A stretch of DNA of 64,000 nucleotides from Nitrosopumilales archaeon (GTDB lineage Archaea; Thermoproteota; Nitrososphaeria; Nitrososphaerales; Nitrososphaeraceae): positions 32,001 to 96,000 of the forward strand of contig JBIQJB010000001.1 of assembly GCA_044507735.1 (NCBI GenBank), given 5' to 3'. Position 1 is the first letter of the stretch. Each line of letters starts with the position of its first letter. The notes beneath the pieces were generated by a model that saw only the letters and a program-made list of their open reading frames with translations, had not been told where the DNA came from and ran no database searches. Of the stretch, positions 7,025 to 38,392 are shown piece after piece. A program made the translations under genes and the position numbers.

Positions 7025-7125
7025 GCCGGGATCGCCTAGCCCGGTAGGGCGCAAGCCTGGAATTTGTCAAACCGGCCAGCTTGTGACCCGTGAGGGTCCC
7101 GAGGGTTCAAATCCCTCTCCCGGCG
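7025..7125 (+). tRNA. tRNA-Ser(GGA) with a 15-nt intron (7063-7077) at 37/38
   Basis: Acceptor stem GCCGGGA/TCCCGGC with discriminator G; anticodon stem CAAGC/GCTTG; anticodon GGA at 7059-7061; bulge-helix-bulge (CTGG/CCGG with AAT and CCA bulges); long variable arm GACCC-GTGA-GGGTC; T-arm GAGGG-TTCAAAT-CCCTC. Confidence 0.93.
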
Positions 7126-7127
7126 CT
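7108..7127 (+). repeat. attL, 20-bp direct repeat CAAATCCCTCTCCCGGCGCT (tRNA 3' end)
   Basis: Identical to 38373-38392. Confidence 0.9.
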
Positions 7128-7279
7128 GTGTTTGGGGAGTCATCAGCGAAGAGCATCGACGAACGCAGCAGCAAAAAACCAAGCTCAACAAGGGTTTTAA
7201 CTCGGAAGTGCACATCGGTAGACAAGCACCAACCGACTTCCTACCTGACTCGCACCAAGCAGGAAGGAAGAACTCAAAG

Positions 7280-20424: not shown

Positions 20425-21210
20425 TCACAGCCTGCCCTGTTTCATCTCTTCCCAAAGAACTTCAGTTAGTCCCTGGATCCTTCTAAAGTCATTCGCAGTG
20501 GCGGGACCAAAACCGGCGTAGTGATTATTTGCAGCCACTATCCCAAACTTTACCTCATCATTGACACCCTTCAGTTTCTTCGACCACGTTTCCATCTCTG
20601 CTTTCCTATCCTTCTGTATTCTACCAAAGTCCTTCTCATCTATGCTTCTGTCGCCAATGAACCGCAGGTAAAAGAAATCCGTAGTAAGTTCAGCGGGAGT
20701 CTGGATCGTGTCAAGCTGGCTCCATGTCAGGCATATGTTGTTATCCGATAGCAGCTTGTAAACGTCCTCGGAGAACCATGACTTGTGCCGGACTTCAATC
20801 GCGTAGGAATATTTCTTCCAAAGGTGCGGGATGAGGCGCTCTAGTTTTGGCAGACCCTCATCCTTCTTCAATGAAGGGGGCAGCTGTATGAGCAGGCATA
20901 GCAGCTTGCGCTCCAAGGGCTTCATTGCTTCCATGAATTGCTCAAGCGCAGGCAGGCCGCCGCCAAGCCGCGTATCATGCGTCACTACCTGCGGGAACTT
21001 TGCGGTAAACCGGAAGTGCTCCGGAGTCATTGCGTCCCAGCGCTTGACCATCTTGAAGTTAGGTGTGCGATAAAATGTTGAATCTATCTCAACATAATCA
21101 AAGACTTGGCCGTAGTATTGTAGCCAGCGTGCAGATGGCAGCCTTGCTGGATAAAAGTGACCTAGCCATGCATCGTATGACCAACCTGAGCAGCCTATGT
21201 ATACTTGCAT
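20425..21210 (-). CDS. DUF72 domain protein (YecE-like TIM barrel)
   Basis: IGCSGWSY, VEIDSTFY, KFPQVVTH, QLPPS, IEVRHKSW, YLRFIG, NNHYAG. Confidence 0.93.
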   Translation of the reverse strand: MQVYIGCSGWSYDAWLGHFYPARLPSARWLQYYGQVFDYVEIDSTFYRTPNFKMVKRWDAMTPEHFRFTAKFPQVVTHDTRLGGGLPALEQFMEAMKPLERKLLCLLIQLPPSLKKDEGLPKLERLIPHLWKKYSYAIEVRHKSWFSEDVYKLLSDNNICLTWSQLDTIQTPAELTTDFFYLRFIGDRSIDEKDFGRIQKDRKAEMETWSKKLKGVNDEVKFGIVAANNHYAGFGPATANDFRRIQGLTEVLWEEMKQGRL

Positions 21211-21282: not shown

Positions 21283-22143
21283 TTACCAGCCAGGCGGCTG
21301 AACGGGACAGGAACCAATTTCCTCTCTGTCTATGTATGACCAAAGTATTTCTCCTGTCCTTGCATCCACCGCATAGATGAAGTGGTTGCGATTCCCGACT
21401 GAGGTATCTTGCCAACAACCATCCACGATGTAGGCTAGATGACCCTCTATAGCGTCAGCAAGTTCATTGCCCAACCCACATGAGATAATAGTATCACCAG
21501 GGGTACGTATGCAAGTCTTGCCTGTGTTGGGGAAATACTGGGTGCCATCCTCATGGATGAACGTAAGCGTCAATGGATGACCATAATATCTTGGATATAG
21601 CACAAACTTGTCAACATGCATGGGGGCAACTTTCTTTTCCATATCCTCCCTAGTGATGTCGGCAGCATCGTCTTCAGTTAGGCTAGGTCGGCTTTCTATC
21701 CCGGTTGGCAGCAATATCGGCTGCTGCGACCAGACAACTACGGTTCCATGCTTGTGAGGATGCGGCTCGCTATGGTAGCCGAATGCTCCCGGCTTGGTAA
21801 ATGTGAACTGAAAGGTATCACCAGGGGCAAGCAAAAGCCTATCGTCGCTACCTTCATCAAGATTAGTTGCTCTCCAAAACTCTGGATCAGACCTGTCATC
21901 AGCCCGTATTGAACTAAATGTTGTATCTTCATTAACCCACTTTACGGTGTTGTTTACCCCAAGGATCACATGAATGACTGCTGGTTCAAAGTTGTTATGC
22001 TCAGATATTGCTGAGGAGGAGCCCTCTGGAATTGTCACCGTGACCACTCTCGGTCGGTCTGGAACAGCACTTGCTGCGTATAAAAGTGAAAACAAGATGC
22101 CAAATACGACAATGACAATCAGAAGCGTCGAACGATAGCTCAC
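21283..22143 (-). CDS. membrane-anchored cupredoxin-fold protein with PepSY-like C-terminus
   Basis: N-terminal TM; NFEPAVIHVILGVNNTVKWVNED; FTFTKPG..GYHSEPHP; YAVDARTGEI. Confidence 0.75.
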   Translation of the reverse strand: MSYRSTLLIVIVVFGILFSLLYAASAVPDRPRVVTVTIPEGSSSAISEHNNFEPAVIHVILGVNNTVKWVNEDTTFSSIRADDRSDPEFWRATNLDEGSDDRLLLAPGDTFQFTFTKPGAFGYHSEPHPHKHGTVVVWSQQPILLPTGIESRPSLTEDDAADITREDMEKKVAPMHVDKFVLYPRYYGHPLTLTFIHEDGTQYFPNTGKTCIRTPGDTIISCGLGNELADAIEGHLAYIVDGCWQDTSVGNRNHFIYAVDARTGEILWSYIDREEIGSCPVQPPGW

Positions 22144-22170
22144 TACAACCTGTCTATATCAGCGGAAACA

Positions 22171-22226
22171 TTTGAGCATTTGTCCAAACGTCTTATCGTG
22201 CTCAATAGAACCTTTGGCTATAGTCT
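22171..22226. repeat. gene-junction motif, double copy (TTTGAGCATTTGTCC ... GAACCTTTGGCTATAGTCT)
   Basis: Similar to 32192-32240; internal inverted repeat TTGAGCA/TGCTCAA. Confidence 0.65.
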
Positions 22227-22820
22227 CTAATCTGTAACGGTTACTGTGATTAGTTGTCCAGAACCCATTCCAGTTCCTCCCGGTTCGCCGGCCCAGCTGG
22301 CTTCGACGGTGTATTCATAAGTGCCGTTAGTGGCTGTAGGTGATGCAGTTATGGTTAGAAAGCCGGCATCTGTTATAACCCATCCATATTCATTTAACCT
22401 GGCTTTCCCCTGTGCAATATTGTCCTCTGATAATACCACAGTTTCCCTATCAAGTGACAATACAAGCTCGCCAGCAATTTCGCTGCTATCAAATGTATAG
22501 GGCATTAGAGAGAGGCTCAAGACTTTCTCTACACTTCCTCTGGTCTCTATTGTAACAGGCACCCTGATTGTTTCTCCTTTCTTTACAACCATATCTCTTT
22601 CTGGCAGGGCAACACCAAAGTCTATCTCGATTGTCTGCCCTTCCTCTCCCAGCACGATGGTGCTGTGGACTATTATTTCAGATGTTTCCTGGCTTTCACC
22701 GTTGTTGGTAGTGGTAGCAGATGCATATGCAGAGGTTGATGGTAGGATAGTGACCTGTAAAAGCAGAAATGAAATTGACAGCAAAACGATAGATGTTGCC
22801 ATTCTGAAATCACTCGTCAT
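22227..22820 (-). CDS. secreted Ig-like beta-sandwich protein
   Basis: Signal peptide (AYA); VKKGETIRVPVTI...LTITASPTATNGTYEYTV. Confidence 0.65.
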   Translation of the reverse strand: MTSDFRMATSIVLLSISFLLLQVTILPSTSAYASATTTNNGESQETSEIIVHSTIVLGEEGQTIEIDFGVALPERDMVVKKGETIRVPVTIETRGSVEKVLSLSLMPYTFDSSEIAGELVLSLDRETVVLSEDNIAQGKARLNEYGWVITDAGFLTITASPTATNGTYEYTVEASWAGEPGGTGMGSGQLITVTVTD

Positions 22821-22850
22821 AATCTTATGTATATAATGTCTGCAAAGTTG

Positions 22851-22865
22851 CTTTTGAGCCTTTGG
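22851..22865. repeat. gene-junction motif CTTTTGAGCCTTTGG
   Basis: Directly abuts the stop codon at 22866; about 31 nt before the next start. Confidence 0.7.
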
Positions 22866-24392
22866 TCACTTCCGCTTCCGTAGTGTAAAGTAGGCAGCAA
22901 TTCCAGCCATCGCAGCTCCTATCCCAACTAGCGCGGGAAGAAAGTCAGTATTTTCATCTGTTGCAGCGCCATTATGTTCCTCGCTACTCGGAGGTGAGGG
23001 GTCGGGATACTGCACGTAAGTTATGGAAGCACTATCATCTATCCAAGCCAGATGAAGGCCAGAAAGAGATGCCGCTGCTTTGTAATTGCCTGAAGCGCCG
23101 AGGAGTTCAGTCAAATCATATGCCGCATCAAAATCCTCGCCGCCATTGCTGCTGACCAACAACGACATGTGATCACCTTCACCTTCGACTAGCTTAGGGA
23201 ACAGGATGAAAACATGATCACTTTCTGATAAAATCGAAGGTGTAAAGAACGAGTACGGACTTGCCCGGAGAGTGTTGTTTGTAAGGGTCATCGGTCCTGC
23301 AAATGATTTACCGGAGTCTGTGCTTCTTATTAACTGAACGTCCCATATCGGCCAATACATGTATGTTATGTAGACATTGTCAGTATTGCCAGCAGGCAGC
23401 GAGATTTCCGGATAACCGAAATCCTTCGTCAAGACTAATGTATCATCGAACGTCCTTCCTGAATCCTGACTTCTTTTGAATGAAATGCCACTATCATCAT
23501 ACCACGTAAGGCAAACCACATTTCCCCTTGAGACAACCTGCGGCTGTGGAGTAGTCCCCTTCTGGGAGAATATCCTACCGCTATCAAAACTTTTTCCGGC
23601 ATCGTTGCTCTTTGTGAAATGAACGCTTCCTTGTTCATTATTGCCAGTTTTGGATTCGTCGTACTGCTGCCATGCTACGTATACATTATCTCCGGATGCA
23701 GACATTTTTACATAGTTCGTATAGACCTGCGGATCGGTAGTAGGTATTTTTGACACATCTTGCGGAGTGCTGAATGTATTTCCACTGTTGGTTGAGCCAA
23801 CGTAGTAGATTTGACCCCAAGAATAGTCAGACATTATCCAAATGACATGAACCTTGTCACCTGTAGTAGCCGCCAGCCCGAGGTTTGAAAAGTAGACTGC
23901 CGGCGAGTCTATCCGGTTGGTGCTCAGATTAACTGGCTTTGAGAAGGAGGCTCCTGCATCCGTACTTTTAGCAAAGAAAACGCCCCGATTGGCAGGATTG
24001 TCGTATGCTCCATCAATCCAGGCGACATACACATTCTTTCCAGAAACAGCCATTTGGTATTCAAGAGGAATTTCGATGCCGCTTGCAACCTCTAGTTGCG
24101 GGTCAAATGTGCGTCCGTTATCCAAGCTCTTTCTGAGCAGTAATTTTCCTTCGTTTGGCCAAAGAACGTAGATATTATTATCTTCCGCTGCGATCTCTAT
24201 GTCGCCACCAGCTCGTTCTGCCAAGATAGTCTCGTTTACAAACTTCTGCGTTGAGGCATCATCATTTTCTTGTGCGCCTGCTGCGATGATTCGTAGACCG
24301 GTGGTTTGCGAGCCAAAAATGAGCATCGCTATGAGGGTAAAAGAAGCTGCCAGCATTACCGATCGTTGCTTCAATCTTGGTGTTTCTGTCAA
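22866..24392 (-). CDS. BNR/Asp-box repeat (sialidase-like) surface protein with C-terminal TM anchor
   Basis: Seven S-x-D/N-x-G-x-x-F repeats (SLDNGRTF, STDAGASF, STNSGNTF, SNDAGKSF, SQDSGRTF, STDSGKSF, SSNGGEDF); TM plus RKRK tail. Confidence 0.85.
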   Translation of the reverse strand: MTETPRLKQRSVMLAASFTLIAMLIFGSQTTGLRIIAAGAQENDDASTQKFVNETILAERAGGDIEIAAEDNNIYVLWPNEGKLLLRKSLDNGRTFDPQLEVASGIEIPLEYQMAVSGKNVYVAWIDGAYDNPANRGVFFAKSTDAGASFSKPVNLSTNRIDSPAVYFSNLGLAATTGDKVHVIWIMSDYSWGQIYYVGSTNSGNTFSTPQDVSKIPTTDPQVYTNYVKMSASGDNVYVAWQQYDESKTGNNEQGSVHFTKSNDAGKSFDSGRIFSQKGTTPQPQVVSRGNVVCLTWYDDSGISFKRSQDSGRTFDDTLVLTKDFGYPEISLPAGNTDNVYITYMYWPIWDVQLIRSTDSGKSFAGPMTLTNNTLRASPYSFFTPSILSESDHVFILFPKLVEGEGDHMSLLVSSNGGEDFDAAYDLTELLGASGNYKAAASLSGLHLAWIDDSASITYVQYPDPSPPSSEEHNGAATDENTDFLPALVGIGAAMAGIAAYFTLRKRK

Positions 24393-24479
24393 ATGGTCGA
24401 TAGATATACTCTTTCCTAGGTTACAGTATCATCTGCTGTTCAGATTAAATACCACGCCAAGGATCTCATTGCTCTCAGC

Positions 24480-24857
24480 ATGGCACAGGAACCTCAGCCG
24501 TTGCTTCCGATTATCCTTTCGTCCATCTCAAGATTCTTCAAGCCAAGGCTGCTTACGATCATGATCTTCAGCGCGCTCATCATTATTGCCGGAATCGGCT
24601 ATTATCAAAGTTCAATCCAGTATGAAATGGGTGATAACAACTATTATCCAACGTTTCTGTACCTGTGGTATGGGTTAGCATGGCCATTGATTATCTTACA
24701 ACTGGTTGTGTTTGGAGAACATGCTTCGATTCCCTATTGGGCTAGTTACTTGTACATGGGATTTACTACTGTAGCTTACTCGTATGTTGTATCTTGTGTC
24801 TTATCCTATGCCGCAAGAAGGGGAAGGGGCGGTTTGAAGACCTACTACAACATTTGA
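24480..24857 (+). CDS. hypothetical membrane protein
   Basis: Three hydrophobic segments; TTAAATA upstream. Confidence 0.55.
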   Translation: MAQEPQPLLPIILSSISRFFKPRLLTIMIFSALIIIAGIGYYQSSIQYEMGDNNYYPTFLYLWYGLAWPLIILQLVVFGEHASIPYWASYLYMGFTTVAYSYVVSCVLSYAARRGRGGLKTYYNI

Positions 24858-25040
24858 GATAGATAAAAGACTATCTTTTGGACAGGCAAGGACTATTTTC
24901 ACAAAACTGAAAAAGCCTCAAAAACATGGCTCCAAGAGTACTGTTCAAAATTCGGTTGAAGATCACAATATTTTTCTCCTGAATTTCTTCTTTGTTTCAA
25001 CCGAATTTGGCATAGTACTAATTGGTGGTAATTGTTGTGA

Positions 25041-25445
25041 TCATGCATCTATTACTTTGAGATCGTGCGAGCCTACTACGCTTAAGACTTCGGGCTGCGT
25101 AAGGTTCGAGAGAAGAAATGTCCTGACGTCGTAATCGCCTGCTTCCTCAGGCATCCACGACACACCTACTACGACATCGTCTTTTGGATATATTATGCCA
25201 GTTTGCCATGCTATGTAGACTGAAACGCCATCGCTATTCCTGATCTCAAATAGTGCCAGAAATTGCCTAGAACTCTCGATGTTGGCTGTAAAGGACCGCG
25301 AAATGGTCACCTGTTTGCCAACGGTTGGCACATCAAGCAAATTGCCCTCGCCGTCTGTGATTGTGGGTGGAGGTATGGTAATGATTGTACTGCTCACAAA
25401 TTGTGTAGAGTTCAACGAGAGAAGCAGTGTTATTATGATTGCCAC
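25041..25445 (-). CDS. secreted Ig-like domain protein
   Basis: VGKQVTI...QFLALFEIRNSDGV...SWMPEEAGDYDVRTFL; similar to the first domain of 29940..30707. Confidence 0.65.
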   Translation of the reverse strand: MAIIITLLLSLNSTQFVSSTIITIPPPTITDGEGNLLDVPTVGKQVTISRSFTANIESSRQFLALFEIRNSDGVSVYIAWQTGIIYPKDDVVVGVSWMPEEAGDYDVRTFLLSNLTQPEVLSVVGSHDLKVIDA

Positions 25446-25783
25446 GTTAATACAGACGGCATGACTTCTCTTTGACGTATCTGTTCAAGTGATATTGCGA
25501 ATGCTGGTTTTTCAACTTTGTCTTGGTAGCCAGCTCCAACAAGTCTTTCCATCCTTTAGCTTATGCGCTGCTCCAAGGTGCATGAGGTTTTGCCAGCTCC
25601 CTCATTCAAAGATATTTCTGTGACCGTTACTGCATATCCATTCTCCTTTCTTGCCATTAGACCAAAAGTCAAGCTTTACAGTATCTGGTTTTACGTCATG
25701 ACTACCGCATATCTTACATGGCGGCAAAGATCGGGCATGGTCGATAAAAGACACCATGAGTTTGAGTTACATAAAGTTCGATT

Positions 25784-26260
25784 TTAAGTATTTGCAAGCT
25801 CGCTCTCTGGATATTGGCTCAATATATCTCCAGTCTCTGCGTCTATCAAGCTAATCGTGTTTTTATTTCCATATATGTCCGGCCCAAAAATATCTATGTC
25901 CCACAGGTAGCGATTTTCATAGCCATCAAACCTGCCACCTGCAGCTGGAGTATCCTGCAGCGTCTTTTCATCAACCTTTAGGCCAAATCCATTTGGCTGG
26001 ACATGAACTAAATCAGCCCCTATCTGCATTTCTCCTGTTGACTTTTGTACATCCCATTTATCCCATTCTCCTGCATTGAGGGCTATCTGTACTGCCTCCT
26101 CCTTTGATATTAGATCCGGCACAGGTGGCTCTGTAGCTTGTTGATACGCATAGAGTGTCGCAGCTAATGCACCAAGTGAAAATAATGATATTGTGAGTAT
26201 TCTGACAATGTCTTTCCTTCCACTTCCAAAAAATCTCGAGCCATTGGCAGTTGAGGTCAA
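25784..26260 (-). CDS. membrane-anchored PepSY-like protein
   Basis: TM; ISKEEAVQIA ... YLWDI ... LIDAETGDIL. Confidence 0.65.
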   Translation of the reverse strand: MTSTANGSRFFGSGRKDIVRILTISLFSLGALAATLYAYQQATEPPVPDLISKEEAVQIALNAGEWDKWDVQKSTGEMQIGADLVHVQPNGFGLKVDEKTLQDTPAAGGRFDGYENRYLWDIDIFGPDIYGNKNTISLIDAETGDILSQYPESELANT

Positions 26261-26528
26261 CTAGTACCGATTACCAGTAAAGTTGCATTTATCGCTTTAT
26301 TTATCCAAACTAGCCCACACCAGCTCTTGCTACGTGAGTGGCTCTTTGGTCATAAAGAAGAAAAAGCCAGAATTTTAACCTGCCCTCCTACCAGTACAGT
26401 TCTAGGTCTTCTTTTGACCAATTTCCATTATCTCTTATGGGCCGAGTCGGGTCTAGACCCGAGCTTCAACTCTCCGTCAAACTAATTGCGATGCAGTCGC
26501 TTCAGTTGTAAAGCTACACAAAGAATTA

Positions 26529-27071
26529 ATGTCATGGTGGAAGAAAAATCGCAAAATGGGTCGTAAGCTGTCGGTTGTGGTTGCCGGTGCAGCGGCAGCA
26601 TTGATTATTGTCGTCGGACTGTTTTATTACCAGACAGGTTCTTTTGCGGTACAAAATCCTGCTCAAGAAACATTTAGAACGATGCAAAATGTCTATCTGG
26701 AGCCTAGACAGACTGAGGCTTCTAACCATCCAATAATGGAAGGTCAGGTAGTGGAGATAAGAATTGAGCCCAATTCAGATGAGGCAGCTAGTCCGGATTA
26801 TGAACTGCTTGTTACAATGGTTGACCCATCCGGCGAGACTATCATCAATAAATTCATCAAAGAACCGTTTTATGCCAAGCTAAGACCTGCTCATCCAGGC
26901 TGGCATGCGATAATTGTGACAAATGTCGGCGAGACTGGTATCGCACCTGGAACAAGCATTGTGAATCGTCCATACGATGAAGCCGCAGACAAGGATGTGA
27001 AGATGGCATTTTCATGCATCGTTCCGCCATCTATGAGAAATGAAAACAACACACCGTATCCTTGGTGCTGA
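26529..27071 (+). CDS. membrane-anchored hypothetical protein
   Basis: N-terminal TM, beta-rich body; start may be ATG 26556. Confidence 0.6.
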   Translation: MSWWKKNRKMGRKLSVVVAGAAAALIIVVGLFYYQTGSFAVQNPAQETFRTMQNVYLEPRQTEASNHPIMEGQVVEIRIEPNSDEAASPDYELLVTMVDPSGETIINKFIKEPFYAKLRPAHPGWHAIIVTNVGETGIAPGTSIVNRPYDEAADKDVKMAFSCIVPPSMRNENNTPYPWC

Positions 27072-27142
27072 TATGCGAGCCCTCTTGCATGATCAGCTGG
27101 TTTATCCTCCACAACAAGAAATCAGCCGGCTTGTAGAAGTAC

Positions 27143-27652
27143 CTAGTTTCTATATGTAGTGGTGGCTTTTGTAGTCAGCTCTGCATACTCTTCCGGCTCT
27201 ACAACAACTACAGTGCCGTGCATCCATGGATGAATACTGCAATGGTAGCCGTAGGTGCCTTTCTTTGTGAAAGTATATTCAAATACTTCGCCTTGATGCA
27301 GAGAGGCGCCGGCAGTCGGGCTGTATGTGCCGCCGTGAAGGTGGGTGGCGTTGAAGAACCCTGAGTCGCTGTTGTCGTCTGCTAAGACGGTGCTTTCTGA
27401 ATAATCGTCATTAATCCACATGACTTTATTGTTTGAACCGATAACGACAGTGATTTTTGAAGGTTCAAAGTTCTTGGGAGAGTCTGGCTGCGATGCGCCT
27501 TGTGAAAGTCTAACAACCGAATAAACATCTTCGACTTCACCTGTGGGTCCATGTGAGTTGCCACCTACCAGTTCTCTAGGAGCGATGTAAAACATGCCAA
27601 TTATGACACCTACAGCTACAGTTATTCCAACGACATAACCTGTGATGCCCAA
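27143..27652 (-). CDS. cupredoxin/plastocyanin-like protein
   Basis: NFEPSKITVVIGSNNKVMWIN; YTFTKKGTYGYHCSIHPWMHG (C-x2-H-x2-M). Confidence 0.85.
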   Translation of the reverse strand: MGITGYVVGITVAVGVIIGMFYIAPRELVGGNSHGPTGEVEDVYSVVRLSQGASQPDSPKNFEPSKITVVIGSNNKVMWINDDYSESTVLADDNSDSGFFNATHLHGGTYSPTAGASLHQGEVFEYTFTKKGTYGYHCSIHPWMHGTVVVVEPEEYAELTTKATTTYRN

Positions 27653-27679
27653 CGATTGGAAATGTAAGATGATAAGCTG

Positions 27680-27703
27680 CTTTTGAGCTTTTGGCTACAG
27701 TCT
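27680..27703. repeat. gene-junction motif CTTTTGAGCTTTTGGCTACAGTCT
   Basis: 28 nt upstream of the start at 27652; shares TGGCTAYAGT with 22208-22226 and 33446-33467. Confidence 0.7.
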
Positions 27704-27809
27704 CTCCGTAACTGTGGTACTGTTAACTAGCGTCAGTCGCATCATCATGATATTATCTGTGGAGCGAACGTGAGAGACTGGAAGAATATTCTGATAAAAC
27801 CATATATCT

Positions 27810-28595
27810 TTGGAAACCCATCTATTCAAGAGGGCATTGGGCAACCTTCGTGCTGTTACGGTATCTTTGATGGCGATGGGCATCGCCGCATCATTGGTTA
27901 CTGCATCCTCACTCCCATATTCAATGTTGAATAAGGCTGATGCTGATTTTAGTCCTACGATGATGATGGCAACAGAACCGGGGTTATCATCTGAGCATGA
28001 GGCAAAAGTGTCAAAAAGCGCCAATAATGAGTTTTACCCTGTAATTTCTGAAAGGTGGGGGCAAAATCCAACCGTAGATAGCGAAGAGGAAGCTTCCTAT
28101 GTGGCTGGTTTTGATGTCAAGTTCCCACGCATAGAGTCGTACTATGAATTGCAATTGGCTACCATTGATCAAGTACAGAATGATACTACTAGATACTATG
28201 TCTGGCTTTTCTATTCTCCAACTCCTATAACTGACAAGATGACTATCAACCAGTTCTGGGAACAGGGCGGAATCACCATCAACTACCACGAGAACCTGGT
28301 AAGTGTTCTCAACGATGAGGGCACCAGCGGCCTATCCTACACCGATATGGCGGCTATGGTTGAATCATCCATACAATCAGGGCTGGTCGCCTATGAAGGC
28401 GATATCAACGGTCACAGGATGGTCGCCATAGAAGACAAGCACAGGGAGTTTCAAGGATTTGCCATCCATGACCCTGCGCAGGTAGACTTTATCGCTGGAA
28501 ACACGTATGTGTCACTGCAAGGGTACAAGGCGCTTCCTGACCTAGTACAAATGGCAGAATCTATGCCATTTGATGCTGGACACGAACACCATTAA
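27810..28595 (+). CDS. secreted protein, DUF4367/anti-sigma-like extracellular fold
   Basis: Signal anchor; EEASYVAGFDVKFP...INGH...LPDLVQMAESM. Confidence 0.55.
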   Translation: METHLFKRALGNLRAVTVSLMAMGIAASLVTASSLPYSMLNKADADFSPTMMMATEPGLSSEHEAKVSKSANNEFYPVISERWGQNPTVDSEEEASYVAGFDVKFPRIESYYELQLATIDQVQNDTTRYYVWLFYSPTPITDKMTINQFWEQGGITINYHENLVSVLNDEGTSGLSYTDMAAMVESSIQSGLVAYEGDINGHRMVAIEDKHREFQGFAIHDPAQVDFIAGNTYVSLQGYKALPDLVQMAESMPFDAGHEHH

Positions 28596-28719
28596 TGCCA
28601 TCTATGCTTGGCTGCATTTTGGATCATTGTTATCCACTTGTTCTTTCCCTCTATCCTATGCCTGCAACCTTCACAAGTGGTTTTTCGCTGTCAACCATGG
28701 GGCGATGGGTAAGAAAATA

Positions 28720-29259
28720 TCATTTGGATTTTAGCTCTATCCTGCCAACAAAATAATCCATAAACGGCGGAAACTCTTCAAGGCTAACCCGCTCCGGTTC
28801 AGAAGAGGGATAAACACTTGCATTGCGGTAATAGTAACTTATTTCATACCCCTCAAGTTGGACAGCTTCCATCCGGGGAATGCCCGTAGAATTATCAACG
28901 ACGGTCATTACTGCATCGTCATCATCACTTCCAGTCGTGGACAGGTAGACTTTTATAAAATCCTCCATTGTGAGCCTTGTAGGCCGCTGATATTCAATAT
29001 GGATTTGGTTGCCAATATCATCTGTGTGAATCGTCTTTATGCAACCGTCACTCCTTCCAATATTGTCAGGCAAAAGCCTTGGTTTTCCATCAACAACAAT
29101 CTCTATACGTGGTTTTAGCTGGAAATCATGTTCGTTGTGAGCGGTCAGGCAGGCATCGCGGGTATGAGTATCCGGAAAGGCATTGGGGATGATAATGGCC
29201 CACGATGCAACTATGGCAAGGGTGACCCCGATTACGATTCCGACAGGAAATGTTTCTAT
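28720..29259 (-). CDS. membrane-anchored hypothetical protein
   Basis: Frame is open upstream of 29073 through a TM segment (ETFPVGIVIGVTLAIV); LPDNIG..GCIKTIHTDD..IHIE; no ATG/GTG/TTG before the TM, possible ATA start. Confidence 0.55.
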   Translation of the reverse strand: METFPVGIVIGVTLAIVASWAIIIPNAFPDTHTRDACLTAHNEHDFQLKPRIEIVVDGKPRLLPDNIGRSDGCIKTIHTDDIGNQIHIEYQRPTRLTMEDFIKVYLSTTGSDDDDAVMTVVDNSTGIPRMEAVQLEGYEISYYYRNASVYPSSEPERVSLEEFPPFMDYFVGRIELKSK

Positions 29260-29509
29260 TCGGATGCTCTTTTCTAATGTGAATTTGCTTATCTATTTTG
29301 TGCTTCCGGGTTCTGTCTAGTTATCAGGTGGTTCTCCACCTGTCAAGCGTCGGGTGATCGAAAAGATGCTCTCTTCACTACTTTGCTCTTGATAAGGATA
29401 TGAATGATATATCCATCAGTGCCAAAATCAAGACTATGATGCCAGTGGCTTCTACTATTGAGCCACCGAGAAAGAGAAAGCCCGAGATATTAGGTGTACA
29501 AATAGGTGT

Positions 29510-29692
29510 TCATGTTTCCATAGATTGCTGGTCGCCATAAAACTCGTCTAGAGAGCCCCTGCTTGCAGTCATGCAATTCTCGTGATCAATCTTGTTCAAA
29601 AAGCCAGACAGTAGCAGGATAGCTCCTATACCAATCATGCCCGCACCAATAGCTACTTTGACTTTCTTTTCTTGCATCGCTGTTTGTAGCAT
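29510..29692 (-). CDS. short membrane protein or truncated cassette gene
   Basis: 60 aa with one TM segment. Confidence 0.35.
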   Translation of the reverse strand: MLQTAMQEKKVKVAIGAGMIGIGAILLLSGFLNKIDHENCMTASRGSLDEFYGDQQSMET

Positions 29693-29820
29693 AGCAGTTA
29701 GTTATGACTTAAGAAATTTTTGGAAGCGTTCTGGATGACTGGCATCCCAACTTTAGATGCACCTGCAGAGCATTCTGCGAGCCTTTCAGGAACGTGCAGC
29801 CGCACCTGAGTGGGCAGCAG

Positions 29821-29890
29821 ACCTTGCTGAGTAAAAGTGACCTAGCCAAGCGTCATACGACCAACTAGAGCAGCCTATGTAAAATTGCAC
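29821..29890 (-). pseudogene. DUF72 5' fragment
   Basis: 58/70 nt identical to 21141-21210; translates VQFYIGCSSWSYDAWLGHFYSAR. Confidence 0.85.
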
Positions 29891-29939
29891 TATTGTTATA
29901 TAGCTCCCCGCACACATCTGCTTTTAGAAAGGAACTTAG

Positions 29940-30707
29940 ATGACTTCGGTAGCTGATAAAGTCACTACTATTATACTACTGGTAGTGGTATGCCTGAACC
30001 TTGCCCTTTTAGTTTCAAATACCACAGCCGCAGCAGTTGATGATGACGGGGATTATCCCGCTCTGGTCAATGGAGAGATATCCATAGCATTAGCTACTTC
30101 AAGAGGCACCTCTCAAATCGTTGACAACGAACCTATCAGTGCAACCAAGTACTATGAAATACAGTCAAACTTTTTGAATCCAGAAGACTCGCCCAAGAGT
30201 CTTTCACGGGTCTACTTTGTTTCGCTAGTAGTCGATCGATATGGTTACACTGATGAAGTAGCCATGAACACTTATGGCGACCGGACAATACCGGCTCAGG
30301 ATTACTATGATTTTCATAACCCTTGGTTTCCACAAGCCGCCGGCGAGTACAGAATCAGAACGTTCCTTGTGTCCGGACTTGACCCTCCACAAATCCTGAC
30401 TTCTGCGCTAACAGCTTATGTAACGGTTAGCGAAAGAATTGAGCTGCTAGGAATAGGTGAAAGCAACGAGCGGATAGCAGTTCAAAACATCAATCTGACT
30501 GACAACTCTGTAGATGTAAGCGAAACCTACTGCGTCGGTTCTAGCTATCATAAGCAGGTTGAGGCTACACTTCATGCAGGCGAACACGTAACAATCGGTG
30601 TAGTCGATGTCTACTTTTTGGGTATAGAGGAGGAAGAGAACAACAACAAAGCCAAGTTTAGATTTGAAGCAAATTCCGGCATGGAAGGTGATGTATGCCT
30701 AATCTAG
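29940..30707 (+). CDS. secreted two-domain Ig-like protein
   Basis: Signal peptide; WFPQAAGEYRIRTFLVS; TTATATA upstream. Confidence 0.65.
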   Translation: MTSVADKVTTIILLVVVCLNLALLVSNTTAAAVDDDGDYPALVNGEISIALATSRGTSQIVDNEPISATKYYEIQSNFLNPEDSPKSLSRVYFVSLVVDRYGYTDEVAMNTYGDRTIPAQDYYDFHNPWFPQAAGEYRIRTFLVSGLDPPQILTSALTAYVTVSERIELLGIGESNERIAVQNINLTDNSVDVSETYCVGSSYHKQVEATLHAGEHVTIGVVDVYFLGIEEEENNNKAKFRFEANSGMEGDVCLI

Positions 30708-30804
30708 TTATGGCATATCTTCCCTCCCTCTCCGTATGGCATCTTCAAGATTCAGGTTAACGCATGCTTCTTGAGATAGAGTTTTGCCGTCTAGCCCTTC
30801 ATAT

Positions 30805-30819
30805 CTTTTGAGCCTTTGC
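30805..30819. repeat. gene-junction motif CTTTTGAGCCTTTGC
   Basis: 3 nt from the stop codon at 30823; no ORF follows. Confidence 0.65.
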
Positions 30820-30822
30820 CTG

Positions 30823-31452
30823 CTAGTATTCTTTCAAAGATTCTGCAATAGCCGCTAGTTGCTCCAGTGGAATGTCAGTTGACCGAGCCTGTATCTTTAC
30901 AATGGTTCCAGTCATGTCGTCAACTACCCACATTGTGGCAGGATGCTCGTTTTCAGACCTGTGGACTATTTCGCCATTTTCGTCTATAGCTATCGATTCA
31001 GACAATCCCCTGTCGTATCCGACGGCATGCATCCTTCCATTCTGAAAAACGTAGCTCTTCGCTTCAAGCGCACTTCCCGTAATGCTTGCAACAGCCCTCT
31101 GGACATACTCTTCACCAGTTTTTGCGGTGCTTGCTGCGCTCAAGGGAGATTCAACAATTTCAATGAACCCTTCTTCTGGCGATGCCGGGTTATCGGGGTC
31201 GCACACTGACCGGGTAAAATACTGCATATACACAGTATCCGGCGGTGCATACTCTACTGACTGCAGAGAATAGCCAGCCGGCAGTGACTTTGGTAGCAGT
31301 ATTACAAATGAAGCGTTCGCTTTAACGCTCTCGATGCTCTGCCAACAGAGAACTTTGTAGTTCGGCGCGCCACTGACGAATATCGAGAACACCAATACCA
31401 GCATAATGCCAACAGCCAAACCGGCAACTACGGGTGCTGTTTCTACAGCCAA
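30823..31452 (-). CDS. membrane-anchored DUF4367-like protein (paralog of 33467..34039)
   Basis: PVVAGLAVGI anchor; FVILLPKSLPAGYSL; LEQLAAIAESL. Confidence 0.7.
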   Translation of the reverse strand: MAVETAPVVAGLAVGIMLVLVFSIFVSGAPNYKVLCWQSIESVKANASFVILLPKSLPAGYSLQSVEYAPPDTVYMQYFTRSVCDPDNPASPEEGFIEIVESPLSAASTAKTGEEYVQRAVASITGSALEAKSYVFQNGRMHAVGYDRGLSESIAIDENGEIVHRSENEHPATMWVVDDMTGTIVKIQARSTDIPLEQLAAIAESLKEY

Positions 31453-31520
31453 ACTATCTAATGGAAAAGCAGACGTTTACTTTAGTATTGTGCAGATAAC
31501 GTCCATATGGGTTCCAAGTG

Positions 31521-31554
31521 GCTGAGGTCGTGGGTTCAAATCCCACCCGGTCCA
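31521..31554 (+). repeat. orphan tRNA 3' half (probable att remnant, tRNA-Ala-like)
   Basis: GCTGAGGTC GTGGG TTCAAAT CCCAC CCGGTCC A = variable loop, T-arm and acceptor 3' strand; no 5' half upstream. Confidence 0.75.
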
Positions 31555-31665
31555 CTCCTACTACCTATTCTATAACTACTGCATTGAATTGAGCGCGTTT
31601 TTGGGATTTGTCCGACACTCAATCTTTGATAAATACGGGGCTGTAATGTTCTTGAGCCATTTCAA

Positions 31666-32169
31666 CTAGCATGGTAGAGCATTGTTACGCAATAGTTTCA
31701 GCACATCCTCTTGGTCTATTACCGAGCTGCTGAAGCCGCTTGGGTTTCCCAAATACGATATCCCACATCGAAGCTTCGTCTCCCGGATATTACCATCAAG
31801 GTCAATCACAACATGGAGATTAGGGTATTCATATCGAATAAGCGAAGCGCCGCCGTAAACGACTATTGTTCTGGCAGGAGCAACGTATCCAACAGTTATC
31901 GCCGGATCCGAGCTTGCAATATTTCCATTTTCGTCATATTCTACAAAAGGCTCTCTATTCACAAGCCCTTCCTTTGCAAAGTAATAGTTTGCAAGAAAAA
32001 GCTGCACCGCCTCTAGCTGTCTTGCTTTGTCAATCAGCACTTGCTCTTCCGGAGTTGTGTCCATTAGAAAGCGTGAGGCTGGTGGATTTAGGGCAATGAA
32101 CAGCACGACGATGAAACCTATGCCTATCGCAAGTCCCGCAACAACCGGTAGCGCAATACCTTCAATCAC
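31666..32169 (-). CDS. membrane-anchored hypothetical protein
   Basis: PVVAGLAIGIG anchor; LIDKARQLEAVQLFLANY. Confidence 0.65.
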   Translation of the reverse strand: MIEGIALPVVAGLAIGIGFIVVLFIALNPPASRFLMDTTPEEQVLIDKARQLEAVQLFLANYYFAKEGLVNREPFVEYDENGNIASSDPAITVGYVAPARTIVVYGGASLIRYEYPNLHVVIDLDGNIRETKLRCGISYLGNPSGFSSSVIDQEDVLKLLRNNALPC

Positions 32170-32191
32170 AAGTGAAATAACGGTCTATTCT

Positions 32192-32240
32192 CTTTTGAGC
32201 TTTTGTCCAATCTTCGTTGTAAGACTGAACCTCTGGATAG
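32192..32240. repeat. gene-junction motif, double copy (CTTTTGAGCTTTTGTCCAA ... GAACCTCTGGATAG)
   Basis: Similar to 22171-22226; abuts the stop codon at 32241. Confidence 0.65.
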
Positions 32241-33380
32241 TCATAGCTTTTGCAGCCGGCCAAAAAACATTTTGAATTTGACAACTAGAACTATGGCAGC
32301 CAGGGATGCGGCCGTAACGATGCCCATGAATACTGGACCAAATTCCGGAACCACAACCGCAGTGAATTGTGCAGACTCCGGGTTGTCAAGGCGATCAAAG
32401 GATCCGCCAGCAGCAGCCTCCCTGTTTAAGGCAGTGATTTCGACTGCAATATCAAGTGAGCCTGTCTGATTTGCTACCAAATACTTTACATCAGTCCCGG
32501 TGCTTGTATGACCGCTGTATCTCTCAGTAACATGATGGTGCAATGGCGAACCTTTGTATTCGATCTCATAAACGACTGTTGTACTATTGTTGATCAGCTG
32601 CCTTGTGGTGGCATTGAAGAAGCTCAATTCAAGCTTGACAACAACTGGCGCCCTGATTTCTTGTGGCATTGTCAGGTTTACCATAATGGGTACAGACCCC
32701 GGAGCAGTCACTTGTGTTAGCGTGAGGTTGCCCAAGTTTCGCATGCCAGCCATATCGTCTTTGAATATCCACTCGCCACTATCAGTATCTAGCTCCCAGT
32801 ATGCCCGGTCTCCGTACGGATCAGATAGCGCAGGTGTGCTATAGCTATATGTTCCACTCAAGTTTGATGCATCGCTTATTGTGTAATTGATGGTGACGAC
32901 AGCGCCATCTTTGTCCGCACCCGGAGGCGGACCACTGCCTTCACCGCCCCCCACCCCGCGTCTTGTATTGAAAAGGTTAGCTGTGGAAATAATGCAGCTT
33001 TCGTTTGGTTCAAGTACCAGGCTGTCTGTAAAGTCAAAAGCTGAGCCTGTTCCTCCAATCCCGAGAGGATTGACTGAGTCTACTTCAATATCAAAGAGCC
33101 CTGCTGTTGCAAGCGTCTCATTCTTGATGTTAGTAAGCTCAATCCAGGCATACGCAAAGCCATCCACTTGACTTAGGCTGCCTTCTTCCGCCGGTAGGCA
33201 CGGCTCTATTTTCTCTTCCAAGCCCCTTAAGGGAGCCCATGGGTCAACCCTTGTGATTATTATTGGCGGATAGGATGATGCATGGGCCGGTGCCGTGCAA
33301 TCGGCAACTGCGATGATCGCCAACGCAAGGCTGCAAAAAATCAAAATCCGGCTGGCGGCTTCGGCTGAACGGATGCCCAT
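32241..33380 (-). CDS. PEFG-CTERM sorting domain surface protein
   Basis: Signal peptide; C-terminal VVPEFG + TM + basic residues. Confidence 0.8.
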   Translation of the reverse strand: MGIRSAEAASRILIFCSLALAIIAVADCTAPAHASSYPPIIITRVDPWAPLRGLEEKIEPCLPAEEGSLSQVDGFAYAWIELTNIKNETLATAGLFDIEVDSVNPLGIGGTGSAFDFTDSLVLEPNESCIISTANLFNTRRGVGGGEGSGPPPGADKDGAVVTINYTISDASNLSGTYSYSTPALSDPYGDRAYWELDTDSGEWIFKDDMAGMRNLGNLTLTQVTAPGSVPIMVNLTMPQEIRAPVVVKLELSFFNATTRQLINNSTTVVYEIEYKGSPLHHHVTERYSGHTSTGTDVKYLVANQTGSLDIAVEITALNREAAAGGSFDRLDNPESAQFTAVVVPEFGPVFMGIVTAASLAAIVLVVKFKMFFGRLQKL

Positions 33381-33408
33381 CTGTGTAGAGGATAATATTG
33401 TTATCTCC

Positions 33409-33466
33409 TAGATGAGCCTTTTGCATCCGGCGTCTACACAATCTCCTTTCGAGCCTTTGGCTACAG
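33409..33466. repeat. gene-junction motif, double copy (TAGATGAGCCTTTTGC ... CTTTCGAGCCTTTGGCTACAG)
   Basis: Both copies are preceded by ATCTCC; the second abuts the stop codon at 33467. Confidence 0.7.
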
Positions 33467-34039
33467 TTATTCCATCAATGAGTCTGCTATCGTTACCAGC
33501 GTTTCCAATGGTGTATCAAGTGACCTTGCATTGATTGCAACGAATGTACCTGTCATGTCGTCCACTGCCACTAGGCGGGCTTTGAGATATGCTTCATCCC
33601 AATAGCCTACTGCATGCATCCTTCCGTCTTGCAAAACATAGCTAGTGGCGTTGATGTTGCTTGCTTGATATCTTGCGATCTCCTTCTGTACATATTCTGT
33701 TCCGTTCTTGGCATCGTTTTCTTTGCTAAAGGATGCCTCAACAATCTCGATTACGCCCTGCTCAGGTTCATATGGATTGTTTGGATCGCAAAGTGATCTC
33801 GTAAAGTACTGCATGTTAACATAGACGTCTGGCACATAGACTACTGATTGAAGAGAATAACCCGCAGGCAATGTCTGTGGCAGCAATACCATAAATGGCG
33901 CATTTTCTTTTACACTCTCTATGCTCTGCCCACAAATAGCGGTAGTGCTGCCGCTACCTGTGGCAAGCACTGAAAGCATCACTATAAACGCAATACCTGC
34001 AGCCAAACCAATTACAACAGGCAATACTTCTCCACCCAT
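33467..34039 (-). CDS. membrane-anchored DUF4367-like protein (paralog of 30823..31452)
   Basis: QSIESVK..A.F..LLP..LPAGYSLQSV...MQYFTRS.CDP shared with its paralog. Confidence 0.7.
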   Translation of the reverse strand: MGGEVLPVVIGLAAGIAFIVMLSVLATGSGSTTAICGQSIESVKENAPFMVLLPQTLPAGYSLQSVVYVPDVYVNMQYFTRSLCDPNNPYEPEQGVIEIVEASFSKENDAKNGTEYVQKEIARYQASNINATSYVLQDGRMHAVGYWDEAYLKARLVAVDDMTGTFVAINARSLDTPLETLVTIADSLME

Positions 34040-34117
34040 AGCTAATAGTTCTATAGCAATGTAGCACCTACATCAGTATTACGTAGGCAGCATCTATCAT
34101 TCCTTTTTCTTTCTCAG

Positions 34118-35017
34118 CTATATCCTATTTCGCCCGCAGCTTTTCTTTCGGGAGCTCAGGATCAAGATGGATGCCATACCCACTGCTGTTACTATAATGG
34201 AAAACGAGCCAAATTCGGGTATAACAGATGTACCTATTACATCAATAGATGATGCATTTTGAGGATAGCGAAATTCTAGGCTGCTAATTACCATAATTCC
34301 GTTCTGTCTATATTGTCGTTCTGCAAAATCCACCTGTTTCCCGTCTACAAGAACAGTGTAGTTGCCACCTAACAACCTATGAGGTATCGTGATTGAAAAA
34401 TAGCCCTCATTTGCCATTTCGCTTCTACCTTCAATGTCAGCATGAATTTTCTTTTCTTCTTGGATGAATAAAAGATCGCATTTCATTGCATTGGTTCTTA
34501 ACCCAACCCTAACCTGCTCTTTCTCACCGTTGCCATACGCACCAGTTACGTTTTGCTCCAATTGCAGTATGAAGGGATGGTCGTGGGGTTCTAGAATATC
34601 TCCGGAAGTGAGCTCAAGTCTGTCAGAACCTCTCCAGCCTAGGTCAATACGCAAAGAAATTTGTTCGCACGTTCTTGAGAGTTCCTGAAACTCGGCGACT
34701 TCATCGTCAGTAAAGATTGCAGGCTCGTAGTGGTCGGTGAATAAAAGAACGTCGTACAATTCCCTAGGAAATGTCAGATCTAGGTATCCTCCAACGGGAT
34801 ATGTAAATGAGATAACCATGAAAGTGGAATCCTCCACTGTAACGTTTTTGATTGAACCGCTGTAGCTAAAACTGTAAAAGAGTGGATAGGTATTGTCTCC
34901 AACTTGAACATCTATGGACTGTAGGCTGCCAGAAGCATGACTCGGAATGACAATAGAAGGGAAAAGCGCAGCCGCAAAACCAAGACTAGATAGAACGATA
35001 AGTGTTATTCTAGCCAT
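34118..35017 (-). CDS. PEFG-CTERM sorting domain surface protein
   Basis: Signal peptide; ITIPHRLLGG, VLVDG, IDVIGTSVIPEFG + TM. Confidence 0.85.
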   Translation of the reverse strand: MARITLIVLSSLGFAAALFPSIVIPSHASGSLQSIDVQVGDNTYPLFYSFSYSGSIKNVTVEDSTFMVISFTYPVGGYLDLTFPRELYDVLLFTDHYEPAIFTDDEVAEFQELSRTCEQISLRIDLGWRGSDRLELTSGDILEPHDHPFILQLEQNVTGAYGNGEKEQVRVGLRTNAMKCDLLFIQEEKKIHADIEGRSEMANEGYFSITIPHRLLGGNYTVLVDGKQVDFAERQYRQNGIMVISSLEFRYPQNASSIDVIGTSVIPEFGSFSIIVTAVGMASILILSSRKKSCGRNRI

Positions 35018-35038
35018 GAATGTAATAGCTCTTCATTT

Positions 35039-35054
35039 CTTTTAGCCTTTAGCT
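35039..35054. repeat. gene-junction motif variant CTTTTAGCCTTTAGCT
   Basis: 22 nt upstream of the start at 35017. Confidence 0.5.
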
Positions 35055-35192: not shown

Positions 35193-35507
35193 GTGCAGAA
35201 AACTGTAGAGGAAGAGGGCATGCCATATCTGAAAAAGGACAATCCCAAGCGCTTATCTGACATAAGGGACGCCTTTGAACAATACATTTCAATCCTTGGA
35301 GAGAGCGCCAAGAACGCAATGATGTATGAACTGACCGTTTATGCCAGGGTATATTTTGATGAGCCCGATCTGTCCATTGTGAAACTGCACGAAGGTCTCA
35401 AGCTTCTATATGGACCGGATACTGCTGACATTATCACAGAGGAAGTTATCTTGAGACTAGATAGATTTGCGGAGGAAAGAAAACAAAGACAGCAGCAGTC
35501 ACTGTGA
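35193..35507 (+). CDS. hypothetical protein
   Basis: ISILGESAKNAMMYEL...LHEGLKLLYGP helical domain; start may be ATG 35220. Confidence 0.6.
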   Translation: MQKTVEEEGMPYLKKDNPKRLSDIRDAFEQYISILGESAKNAMMYELTVYARVYFDEPDLSIVKLHEGLKLLYGPDTADIITEEVILRLDRFAEERKQRQQQSL

Positions 35508-38231: not shown

Positions 38232-38372
38232 TTTCGAGTCAAACTGATAGTTCATTTTTTTACCTTATATTGGATTGAAAAAGCTAAATAGCACGCTCTA
38301 CTGATAACAGGATGCTATGGAAGACATTCTTTCCTCAAAGAAGAATGAACCCTCAAGCACCGCGACGGGTTG

Positions 38373-38392
38373 CAAATCCCTCTCCCGGCGCT
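38373..38392 (+). repeat. attR, 20-bp direct repeat of the tRNA-Ser 3' end
   Basis: CAAATCCCTCTCCCGGCGCT identical to 7108-7127, preceded by GGGTTG (tRNA has GGGTT). Confidence 0.9.

Follow-up and report, generated by a model that had tools for sequence, protein, structure and literature searches.

A near-invariant motif at the gene junctions of integrated elements in one archaeal genus: probably a promoter-level signal of exported-protein genes

Introduction

Why does one short DNA motif recur at the junctions of genes that otherwise have little in common? The question is raised by a 64,000-nt stretch of a Nitrososphaeraceae genome (assembly GCA_044507735.1, contig JBIQJB010000001.1, positions 32,001 to 96,000; called the window below), in which positions 21283-35054 hold an array of mostly single, unrelated genes that is punctuated by a motif with the core CTTTTGAGCCTTTGG, or CCAAAGGCTCAAAAG on the coding, minus strand. 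The original prediction had read this array as integron-like, with gene-plus-motif units exchanged by recombination at the motif, and had named a shared promoter as the alternative. Here we report that the motif is specific to one genus, that it keeps its orientation and distance to the genes that follow it, and that the array is the cargo of a 31-kb integrated island. Judged from sequence comparison, the motif is probably a shared promoter-level signal of exported-protein genes on integrated elements, and this alternative fitted position, orientation and spacing better than recombination did.

Results

Motif copies in the window

With up to two mismatches allowed, the core matched the window five times, always on the same strand (22851, 27680, 30805, 32192 and 33446), compared to a mean of 0.2 matches in shuffled controls, none of which reached five in 100 shuffles. 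The whole 2.33-Mb assembly contained 13 such matches, five of them within the 13.8-kb array stretch, and five matches with at most one mismatch, four of them within it. A 24-nt weight matrix, trained solely with motif instances of other genomes, found seven matches of at least 14 bits in the window, all inside 21283-35054, compared to 23 genome-wide and nine in the reversed-genome control; raising the threshold to 16 bits left 5, 12 and 3, respectively. The copies were graded as five strong and three weak ones and are listed here after the array itself.

21283..35017, 12 on the minus and 4 on the plus strand: the 16 array open reading frames (ORFs) of at least 100 aa, from our own ORF finder
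22851..22865, minus: strong copy, exact 15-mer, 34.8 bits; touches the stop codon of 22866..24392 and lies 30 nt from the ATG of 22227..22820
27680..27694, minus: strong copy, 1 mismatch, 32.4 bits; between divergent genes, 27 nt from the TTG of cupredoxin gene 27143..27652
30805..30819, minus: strong copy, 1 mismatch, 26.0 bits; 3 nt past the stop codon of 30823..31452, with no ORF after it
32192..32206, minus: strong copy, start-proximal variant type ggACAAAAGCTCAAAAG, 22.4 bits; 22 nt from the GTG of 31666..32169
33446..33460, minus: strong copy, 1 mismatch, 28.3 bits; 6 nt past the stop codon of 33467..34039 and 65 nt from the ATG of 32241..33380
22169..22183, minus: weak copy, variant type, 14.3 bits; 25 nt from the GTG of 21283..22143, in a junction orthologous to a double motif at locus L047
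35038..35052, minus: weak copy, 14.2 bits; 20 nt from the ATG of 34118..35017
24910..24924, plus: weak copy, 13.6 bits; past 24480..24857, with no gene after it

The motif described in the original prediction is therefore real, although its copies are fewer than claimed. Eight of the 12 positions named there score at least 13.6 bits (22171, 22851, 24909 on the plus strand, 27680, 30805, 32192, 33446 and 35039), whereas 22208, 31648, 32227 and 33409 fail, with scores below 10 bits; by eye, 22208 and 32227 retain the half-motif TAGCCAAAGG alone, and the orthologous junction of L047 has a full copy at the place of 22208. Six copies had been placed next to stop codons: three do lie there (22851, 30805 and 33446, at 0, 3 and 6 nt), and the other three are unsupported copies. 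The motif had also been described as absent from intergenic DNA outside the element. This holds within the window, where the sole weight-matrix match of at least 10 bits outside the array (46407) lies in a gene, but not in the genome, which carries further copies on contigs C12, C23, C32 and C34. Copies with no gene downstream had been noted as well, and 30805 and 24910 are such copies; the weak plus-strand copy 24910..24924 may be a chance match. The gene content had been given as about 17 genes, about 13 of them on the minus strand and nearly all for secreted or membrane-anchored proteins, which comes close to the 16 ORFs found here; an N-terminal hydrophobic segment (anchor or signal) was present in 14 of them, compared to 374 of 2071 crude genome ORFs (18%).

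Located 3' of the gene-less copy 30805, in window 30737-30804, is a 20-mer, CCTGAATCTTGAAGATGCCA, with a possible small hairpin; it is kept at the paralogous locus C34:865-950 and contains no ORF.

Distribution and anatomy of the motif

Across the genus, the core with at most one mismatch matched 161 times in 50 of 72 genomes, compared to nine matches for the reversed pattern. This tally includes four matches from the unpublished genomes G044, G046 and G047, without which it stands at 157 matches in 47 of 69 genomes, and related genomes in the counts are not independent of one another. In an order-wide sample of 201 genomes (including the unpublished G178, with one match), a match was found in 12 of the 13 sampled members of the genus; the others had 0-3 each, mostly 0-1, with a single exact copy. 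The exact 18-mer formed by the core and its preceding TAG occurred 36 times among one genome each of 185,579 species: 20 times in Nitrososphaera sp. records, six times in one metagenome-assembled genome named 'Thermoproteota archaeon', and as 10 singles in unrelated bacteria, which is about chance level. The motif is specific to one genus. An association with viruses was not seen in IMG/VR, where the 18-mer had no match and the 15-mer occurred in at least 109 stretches; the 80 listed hold a single match each, roughly what chance would give in such a collection by our own estimate.

In several genomes the copies cluster 0.6-2 kb apart on the same strand, for example eight copies (seven on the same strand) within 6 kb on contig C54 of genome G056. 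The DNA of the window array is itself barely conserved in 30 relatives, and the flanks of motif instances do not align across genomes, whereas a 20-mer is near-invariant. The extended consensus on the coding strand is aGTAG-CCAAAGGCTCAAAAG-cAac, co-oriented with the following gene and containing the small palindrome AGCC-AAA-GGCT. Among the 63 instances studied within their loci, the triplet before the core was TAG in 30, TAA in eight and TGA in five. An ORF of at least 60 codons ended exactly at this triplet in only 14 instances, so that in most cases the triplet belongs to the motif itself, and it acts as a stop when the upstream gene is in frame. Tandem double copies about 32-37 nt apart were found in several genomes, with the start-proximal copy being the variant ggRYAAAAGCTCAAAAG.

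The same data bear on the explanation that the copies are functionless leftovers of local gene duplications that carried their flanks along. Both 30823..31452 and 33467..34039, as well as the C34 copy, have the motif past their stop codon (the copy 30805..30819 was co-duplicated with gene 30823..31452 in the C34 paralogue), and both cupredoxin genes of the array have it upstream. However, leftovers of this kind do not account for an exact 15-mer in dozens of species, within unalignable surroundings and beside unrelated genes, nor for 161 matches compared to nine in the reversed control, and we consider this explanation scarcely credible.

Position relative to genes

Fifty-six instances lie away from contig ends. 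A co-oriented ORF starts within 150 nt downstream of 37 of them, and a co-oriented ORF ends upstream of 32; 23 are internal junctions, 12 have a gene only downstream and nine only upstream. The 12 instances that precede a gene without a co-oriented upstream gene have a divergent gene or nothing on the other side, and by map reading five of seven arrays begin with a motif copy. Where a downstream ORF starts within 70 nt (n = 39), it begins 21-30 nt past the motif in 23 cases, and 30 of the 39 encode a hydrophobic N-terminus, compared to the 18% background.

This spacing fits a promoter element. TATA-like hexamers in this genome peak 40-30 nt before ATG starts, suggesting that leaders are short or absent and that a motif with a 24-nt spacer occupies the place of the transcription factor B recognition element (BRE) and TATA box. 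Where spacers are longer, an AT-rich box often lies between motif and start codon, as before 22227..22820. Two further signals did not discriminate: a TATA-like hexamer lies near few instances, the map around 61 instances being sparse everywhere, and the credible divergent genes are 100-174 nt off, which leaves the question of room for an upstream promoter uninformative.

The motif also stays with the downstream gene. Window 26506-27699, with the cupredoxin gene 27143..27652, is 90% identical to contig C191 of the close relative G060 up to the motif, compared to about 83% for core DNA; homology stops at the copy 27680..27694, and the upstream sequences are unrelated. The junction of 21283..22143, which matches the double motif of L047, is a second case of a motif kept with an orthologue. 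Fixed orientation, a fixed distance to the start codon and retention upstream of orthologues despite a differing upstream neighbour are what a regulon-type promoter or operator displays. From position, orientation and spacing, together with its staying with the downstream orthologue, we infer that the motif acts at the promoter level and that a factor exists which reads it.

Several findings weigh against this reading. Only six of the 16 window genes have a motif copy upstream (spacers to the start codon of 20, 22, 25, 27, 30 and 65 nt). The nine instances with a gene only upstream follow the last co-oriented gene and have no ORF of at least 50 aa after them, and by map reading four of eight arrays finish with a motif copy; an element that works only 5' of genes does not predict such array-end copies unless decayed modules or small ORFs follow. 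A small ORF or a broken gene was found after some of the nine (two such cases). Among the 23 closely spaced starts, 16 are GTG or TTG, which is odd for leaderless mRNAs and fits a role at the RNA level better. In three elements at the enolase locus (see below), the first motif is preceded by a canonical TTTAAG box at a distance of 27, 38 and 72 nt and may therefore be transcribed there, and the motif is not AT-rich as a TATA box is. Finally, the instance set is a sample, comprising 63 of the 161 matches with at most one mismatch, from the loci fetched, with 11 loci dropped because their matches lay in conserved genes or loci, and gene calls and start codons throughout come from our own crude ORF finder.

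A motif that acts in RNA would accommodate much of this. Transcription would start upstream, placing the motif in a 5' leader or between cistrons, where it could be a processing site, an aid to translation initiation at starts that are often non-AUG and lack a Shine-Dalgarno sequence, or a tag for the mRNAs of exported proteins. Strict co-orientation with genes and a fixed distance to start codons are equally expected of such an element, as are the GTG and TTG starts, the spacers without any Shine-Dalgarno-like sequence (by eye), the TTTAAG boxes at variable distance upstream and the absence of a nearby TATA-like hexamer in most instances; copies past the last gene of an array would fall in the 3' untranslated region. 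However, Rfam at its gathering threshold identified only tRNAs, one in the window and some in four of 16 motif loci, and the sole self-pairing of the motif is a 4-bp stem of -3.5 kcal/mol. Complementarity to the 3' part of 16S rRNA was no better than that of 5.6% of shuffled motifs, and a special pairing with this region was rejected. Furthermore, the spacing is the normal TATA-to-start distance, so that a role at the DNA level needs no extra assumption. We regard a role in RNA, in any of these forms, as unlikely, although more plausible than any other alternative considered here.

The array is cargo of an integrated island

The remaining alternatives concern recombination, and bear on how the array came to be where it is. 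The features involved are as follows.

About 7025-7127, plus: intron-containing tRNA gene, detected by Rfam though not by ARAGORN; the 3' end of the gene is the left attachment site used by the island
7208..8713, plus: tyrosine recombinase of the island, 501 aa, with a C-terminal zinc ribbon; not an integron integrase (Pfam, NCBIfam)
21138..21209, plus: 72-nt direct repeat, copy 1, at the 5' end of a DUF72 gene
29817..29889, plus: 72-nt direct repeat, copy 2, a DUF72 5' fragment
31521..31617, plus: fragment of the 3' end of another tRNA with its flank, inside the array
38363..38392, plus: remnant of the right attachment site, a copy of the tRNA 3' end (7100-7127) with a 28/30 match and 2 indels

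In G060, whose Cbf5 protein is 96% identical, the Cbf5 and transporter genes lie 3.8 kb apart (G060:C118), compared to 33.9 kb here. Homology to G060 ends at 7127 and restarts at 38312, the island 7128-38311 being missing there, and homology to genome G017 also stops at 7127. Given the empty site in G060, the whole array is cargo of a 31-kb integrated island, which also encodes a metallo-beta-lactamase/RMMBL protein (12697..14208), a ResIII helicase (14799..17447) and a DNA methylase (17778..20333). That the region is modular, variable and mobile, as originally proposed, was borne out.

The array is itself composite. The two DUF72 5'-end repeats are 85% identical and bracket an 8.6-kb array block, which suggests that this block entered the DUF72 gene at its 5' end. 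Compared to the nearest copy available, that of G017 (locus L002, G017:C104), where a block with a 134-aa gene (94% identical) is joined directly to the equivalent of window 34069-34100, an 8.5-kb stretch (window 25537-34068) is present here and missing there; its ends, 25536/34069, lie away from motif copies, and by eye both edges show GCTAC microhomology. Nor do motif copies mark the ends of the paralogous duplications on C34 and C12, and the one on C34 spans the motif and about 70 nt beyond.

A repeat of about 34 nt from the tRNA 3' end seen at 31521-31617 recurs in other genomes of the genus, in tandem and in the same orientation, every 0.7-3 kb; one or two ORFs separate neighbouring repeats, and the motif is absent. 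Such loci are L244 (G010:C2; repeat copies at 249, 1272, 2771 and 5851), L242 (G002:C159), L241 (G011:C68), L243 (G008:C135), L245 (G010:C149) and L247 (G011:C42). They look like a tandem accretion of very small integrase-less elements at one tRNA, and they are truly cassette-like, with the attachment site as the junction repeat.

Motif arrays in other genomes

Several motif arrays occupy very small inserts (1.3-3.1 kb) without an integrase-sized ORF. One series lies between the enolase gene and the next conserved gene, which overlap (TAATG) at 15 of 23 loci of the genus, with one ambiguous locus and seven with an insert. These inserts measure 1-3.4 kb or more; three are motif arrays (G032, G001 and G079), and two hold ABC transporter-like genes. 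The 3.1-kb motif array of G032 sits in the enolase 3' end, has no integrase-sized ORF and is flanked by an imperfect direct repeat of about 20 nt of that end. The 125 nt from the enolase repeat to the first motif are conserved in G032, G001 and G079, whereas the cargo differs. The enolase 3' end is an insertion hot spot in its own right (L042, at G032:C1:869-873 kb, L049, L194 and 20 other loci of the genus).

In G034, a tRNA(CAT) gene is followed by two further copies of its 3' end and flank (scores 48 and 31; shuffle maxima 23 and 24), which bound two small tandem elements, each with the motif at its start and finish. G038 has a lone motif after the tRNA gene where G034 carries these gene-bearing elements. 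In this comparison the tRNA and the motif align and the far flank shares about 45 nt, with a loose-setting score within the shuffle range; this stretch is explained by the tRNA-end copies in G034.

Is the motif a recombination site?

As a recombination site, the motif would be used by a dedicated integron-like recombinase or would, as a 20-nt repeat, drive unequal or homologous exchange of gene-plus-motif units. Among 90 instances (4005 pairs), all 16 informative intergenic pairs with flank homology were one-sided (nine right flank, seven left, none both), with the homology terminating within about 5 nt of the motif; five two-sided pairs were chance matches in genes or overlapping windows. Copies at both array ends (12 instances 5' only, nine 3' only), the lone motif of G038 beside the loaded site of G034 and the unusual conservation of the 20-mer all fit such a site, as does the interspecies identity of two blocks (90% to G060 and 94% to G017), which exceeds that of core DNA (about 82-84%).

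However, spacers are about 45 nt long and the motif fills half of them, so that breaks at the motif do not resolve the crossover point. The predicted breakpoints at the motif were thus found, in that homology between genomes does break there, but tight gene packing prevents the crossover from being located. One right-flank pair rests on the unpublished genome G046, and several pairs are owed to shared tRNA or attachment-site copies. Other repeats bound those inserts that could be delimited, no motif stands at the ends of the 8.5-kb difference to G017 or of the C34 and C12 duplications, and neither a fixed distance to start codons nor a bias towards exported proteins is needed for a recombination site.

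As for the integron form of the idea, the original prediction had itself observed that the sites lack integron ends and that the integrase shows no obvious IntI patch. No attC-type pair (RYYYAAC and GTTRRRY, 40-130 nt apart, both strands) was found in 21283-35054, compared to two in the whole window, and the only inverted repeat of the motif is 4+4 bp. The 501-aa recombinase matched Pfam Phage_integrase right at the cut-off (27.1 bits); it had no match to the integron-integrase models of NCBIfam, reached 27.7 bits with the archaeal XerA model, which bears the name 'site-specific tyrosine recombinase/integron integrase' (cut-off 220), and hit none of the other NCBIfam recombinase models at E values up to 0.01. 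Its gene sits next to its own tRNA site, at a distance of 12.5 kb from the first gene of the array, and its presence is explained by integration of the island. The repeat precedes first array genes, a place that in integrons is taken by attI and not by the junction repeat, and arrays exist without a nearby integrase, one of them flanked by housekeeping genes and devoid of any integrase-sized ORF, whether inside it or adjacent. Integron-like recombination at the motif was not upheld, and we judge a recombination site of either kind to be quite improbable.

A mixed explanation is that the motif is both promoter and exchange point of single-gene modules, with surface genes swapped through a trans-acting recombinase or through exchange driven by the repeat. 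If true, arrays would be bracketed by n+1 copies, lone 'empty' copies would be left beside tRNA genes, and the system would be an archaeal counterpart of integron cassettes that bring their own expression signal. We think this very unlikely.

Proteins encoded by the arrays

Pfam and NCBIfam assigned little within the window array: two cupredoxins (21283.. and 27143..), a BNR-like protein (22866..), traces of PepSY and a near-threshold PEFG-CTERM-like tail in 34118..35017 (24.3 bits, cut-off 25). By eye, PEFG is also present in 32241..33380. Among sampled exported proteins behind the motif, 28 of 36 have no Pfam family.

Three other small proteins were observed. Divergent from the upstream end of the array, window 35193-35507 (plus strand) encodes a 104-aa protein of no known family and without a hydrophobic segment. 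Directly 3' of motif copies in different genomes, two non-membrane proteins recur, one of about 49 aa with a C-x2-C start (MFGKAKCKICG...; L026, L040) and one of about 79 aa (..DIDAKIAYHQEMEH..; L042:5788-6027, L019). The latter two might be regulators.

Discussion

Taken together, the motif would be a genus-specific cis-acting expression signal 5' of single genes with mostly exported or membrane-anchored products, most likely working as DNA within the promoter. One possibility is an unusual core promoter in the BRE/TATA position itself, another the binding site of a putative dedicated factor that overlaps or adjoins this position. Each gene would form its own promoter-plus-gene module, and the modules would travel as cargo of integrated mobile elements. 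The window island is a patchwork of at least three acquired blocks, whose insertion probably used attachment-type direct repeats (tRNA 3' ends and gene ends) and not the motif. Its junction-like appearance would come from the tight packing of the genes, stop codon to promoter, so that any viable reshuffling leaves the motif at the boundary.

Hardly any promoters or regulons have been mapped in the ammonia-oxidising archaea of soil, and here a sharply defined sequence common to dozens of species marks a fast-changing set of mostly unknown exported proteins encoded by integrated mobile elements. Should it prove to be a special promoter, it would lead directly to a dedicated transcription factor or TFB/TBP paralogue and to the switching of accessory cell-surface genes. 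In practice, metagenomes can be screened for mobile surface-gene arrays simply by searching for this string.

Integron cassette arrays, and clusters of attC sites lacking integron-integrases (CALIN), are runs of co-oriented single unrelated genes with junction repeats, the attC sites being 60-140 nt long with R''/R' cores. The arrays described here resemble them in their mostly single, unrelated and co-oriented genes, a repeated junction element, variable content and the lack of an integrase in some arrays. They differ in that the repeat is a near-invariant 20-mer instead of a structured attC (no core pairs), precedes first genes and keeps a promoter-like distance to starts, while the integrase, located next to its tRNA site, is of the ordinary island type and the delimited inserts have other repeats at their borders.

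Another analogy is provided by regulon-specific promoters for extracytoplasmic proteins, such as those of bacterial extracytoplasmic function (ECF) sigma regulons, and by 'mobile promoters' common to unrelated genes. In both cases, as here, one conserved element in promoter position stands before many unrelated genes of the same class and spreads with or between genes. Archaea, to our knowledge, have no sigma factors; a putative reader protein here could be, for example, a TFB/TBP paralogue or a regulator.

As for the carrier, cryptic integrated elements of Thaumarchaeota have been described that insert into tRNA genes, with or without an intron, at their 3' part, or into protein genes at their 3' end, and that carry the integrase at one end, with short attachment repeats, element-in-element insertion and a cargo that includes restriction-modification, plastocyanin-type and S-layer-like proteins (Krupovic et al. 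2019, PMC6563490). The island matches these in its integrase beside a tRNA gene, the tRNA 3' end repeated at the opposite border and the empty site in a relative. Several motif arrays differ from them in lying in 1.3-3.1 kb inserts without an integrase-sized ORF. The passages of that paper on these elements mention no shared upstream motif, and the word 'promoter' does not occur in its text.

A known counterpart of the signal itself is the copper-limitation motif TTCSGSMTTTGWACYANT of Nitrososphaera viennensis, which is reported upstream of exported unknown proteins, cupredoxins and a sialidase/BNR-like gene and is sometimes doubled (Reyes et al. 2020, PMC7785015). Motifs of this type (TTCGGGCTTTGTACYA, at most one mismatch) were present in 60 of 72 genomes of the genus (55 of 67 without five unpublished genomes), with 1-6 copies each, including G000:C52:33437 in the genome studied here. 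Identity of the two motifs was rejected: by eye they agree at 9 of 17 positions, and both coexist in this genome. In the literature searched, the strings of our motif appeared only as unrelated primers, and a search on start sites or promoters in Nitrososphaera/Thaumarchaeota returned nothing usable. The window motif is a separate element, and its string does not occur among the upstream sequences given in Dataset S1 of PMC7785015. Nevertheless, like the copper-limitation motif, it is short, lies upstream of a similar set of genes in the same genus, and has the CTTTG core in common on the reverse strand.

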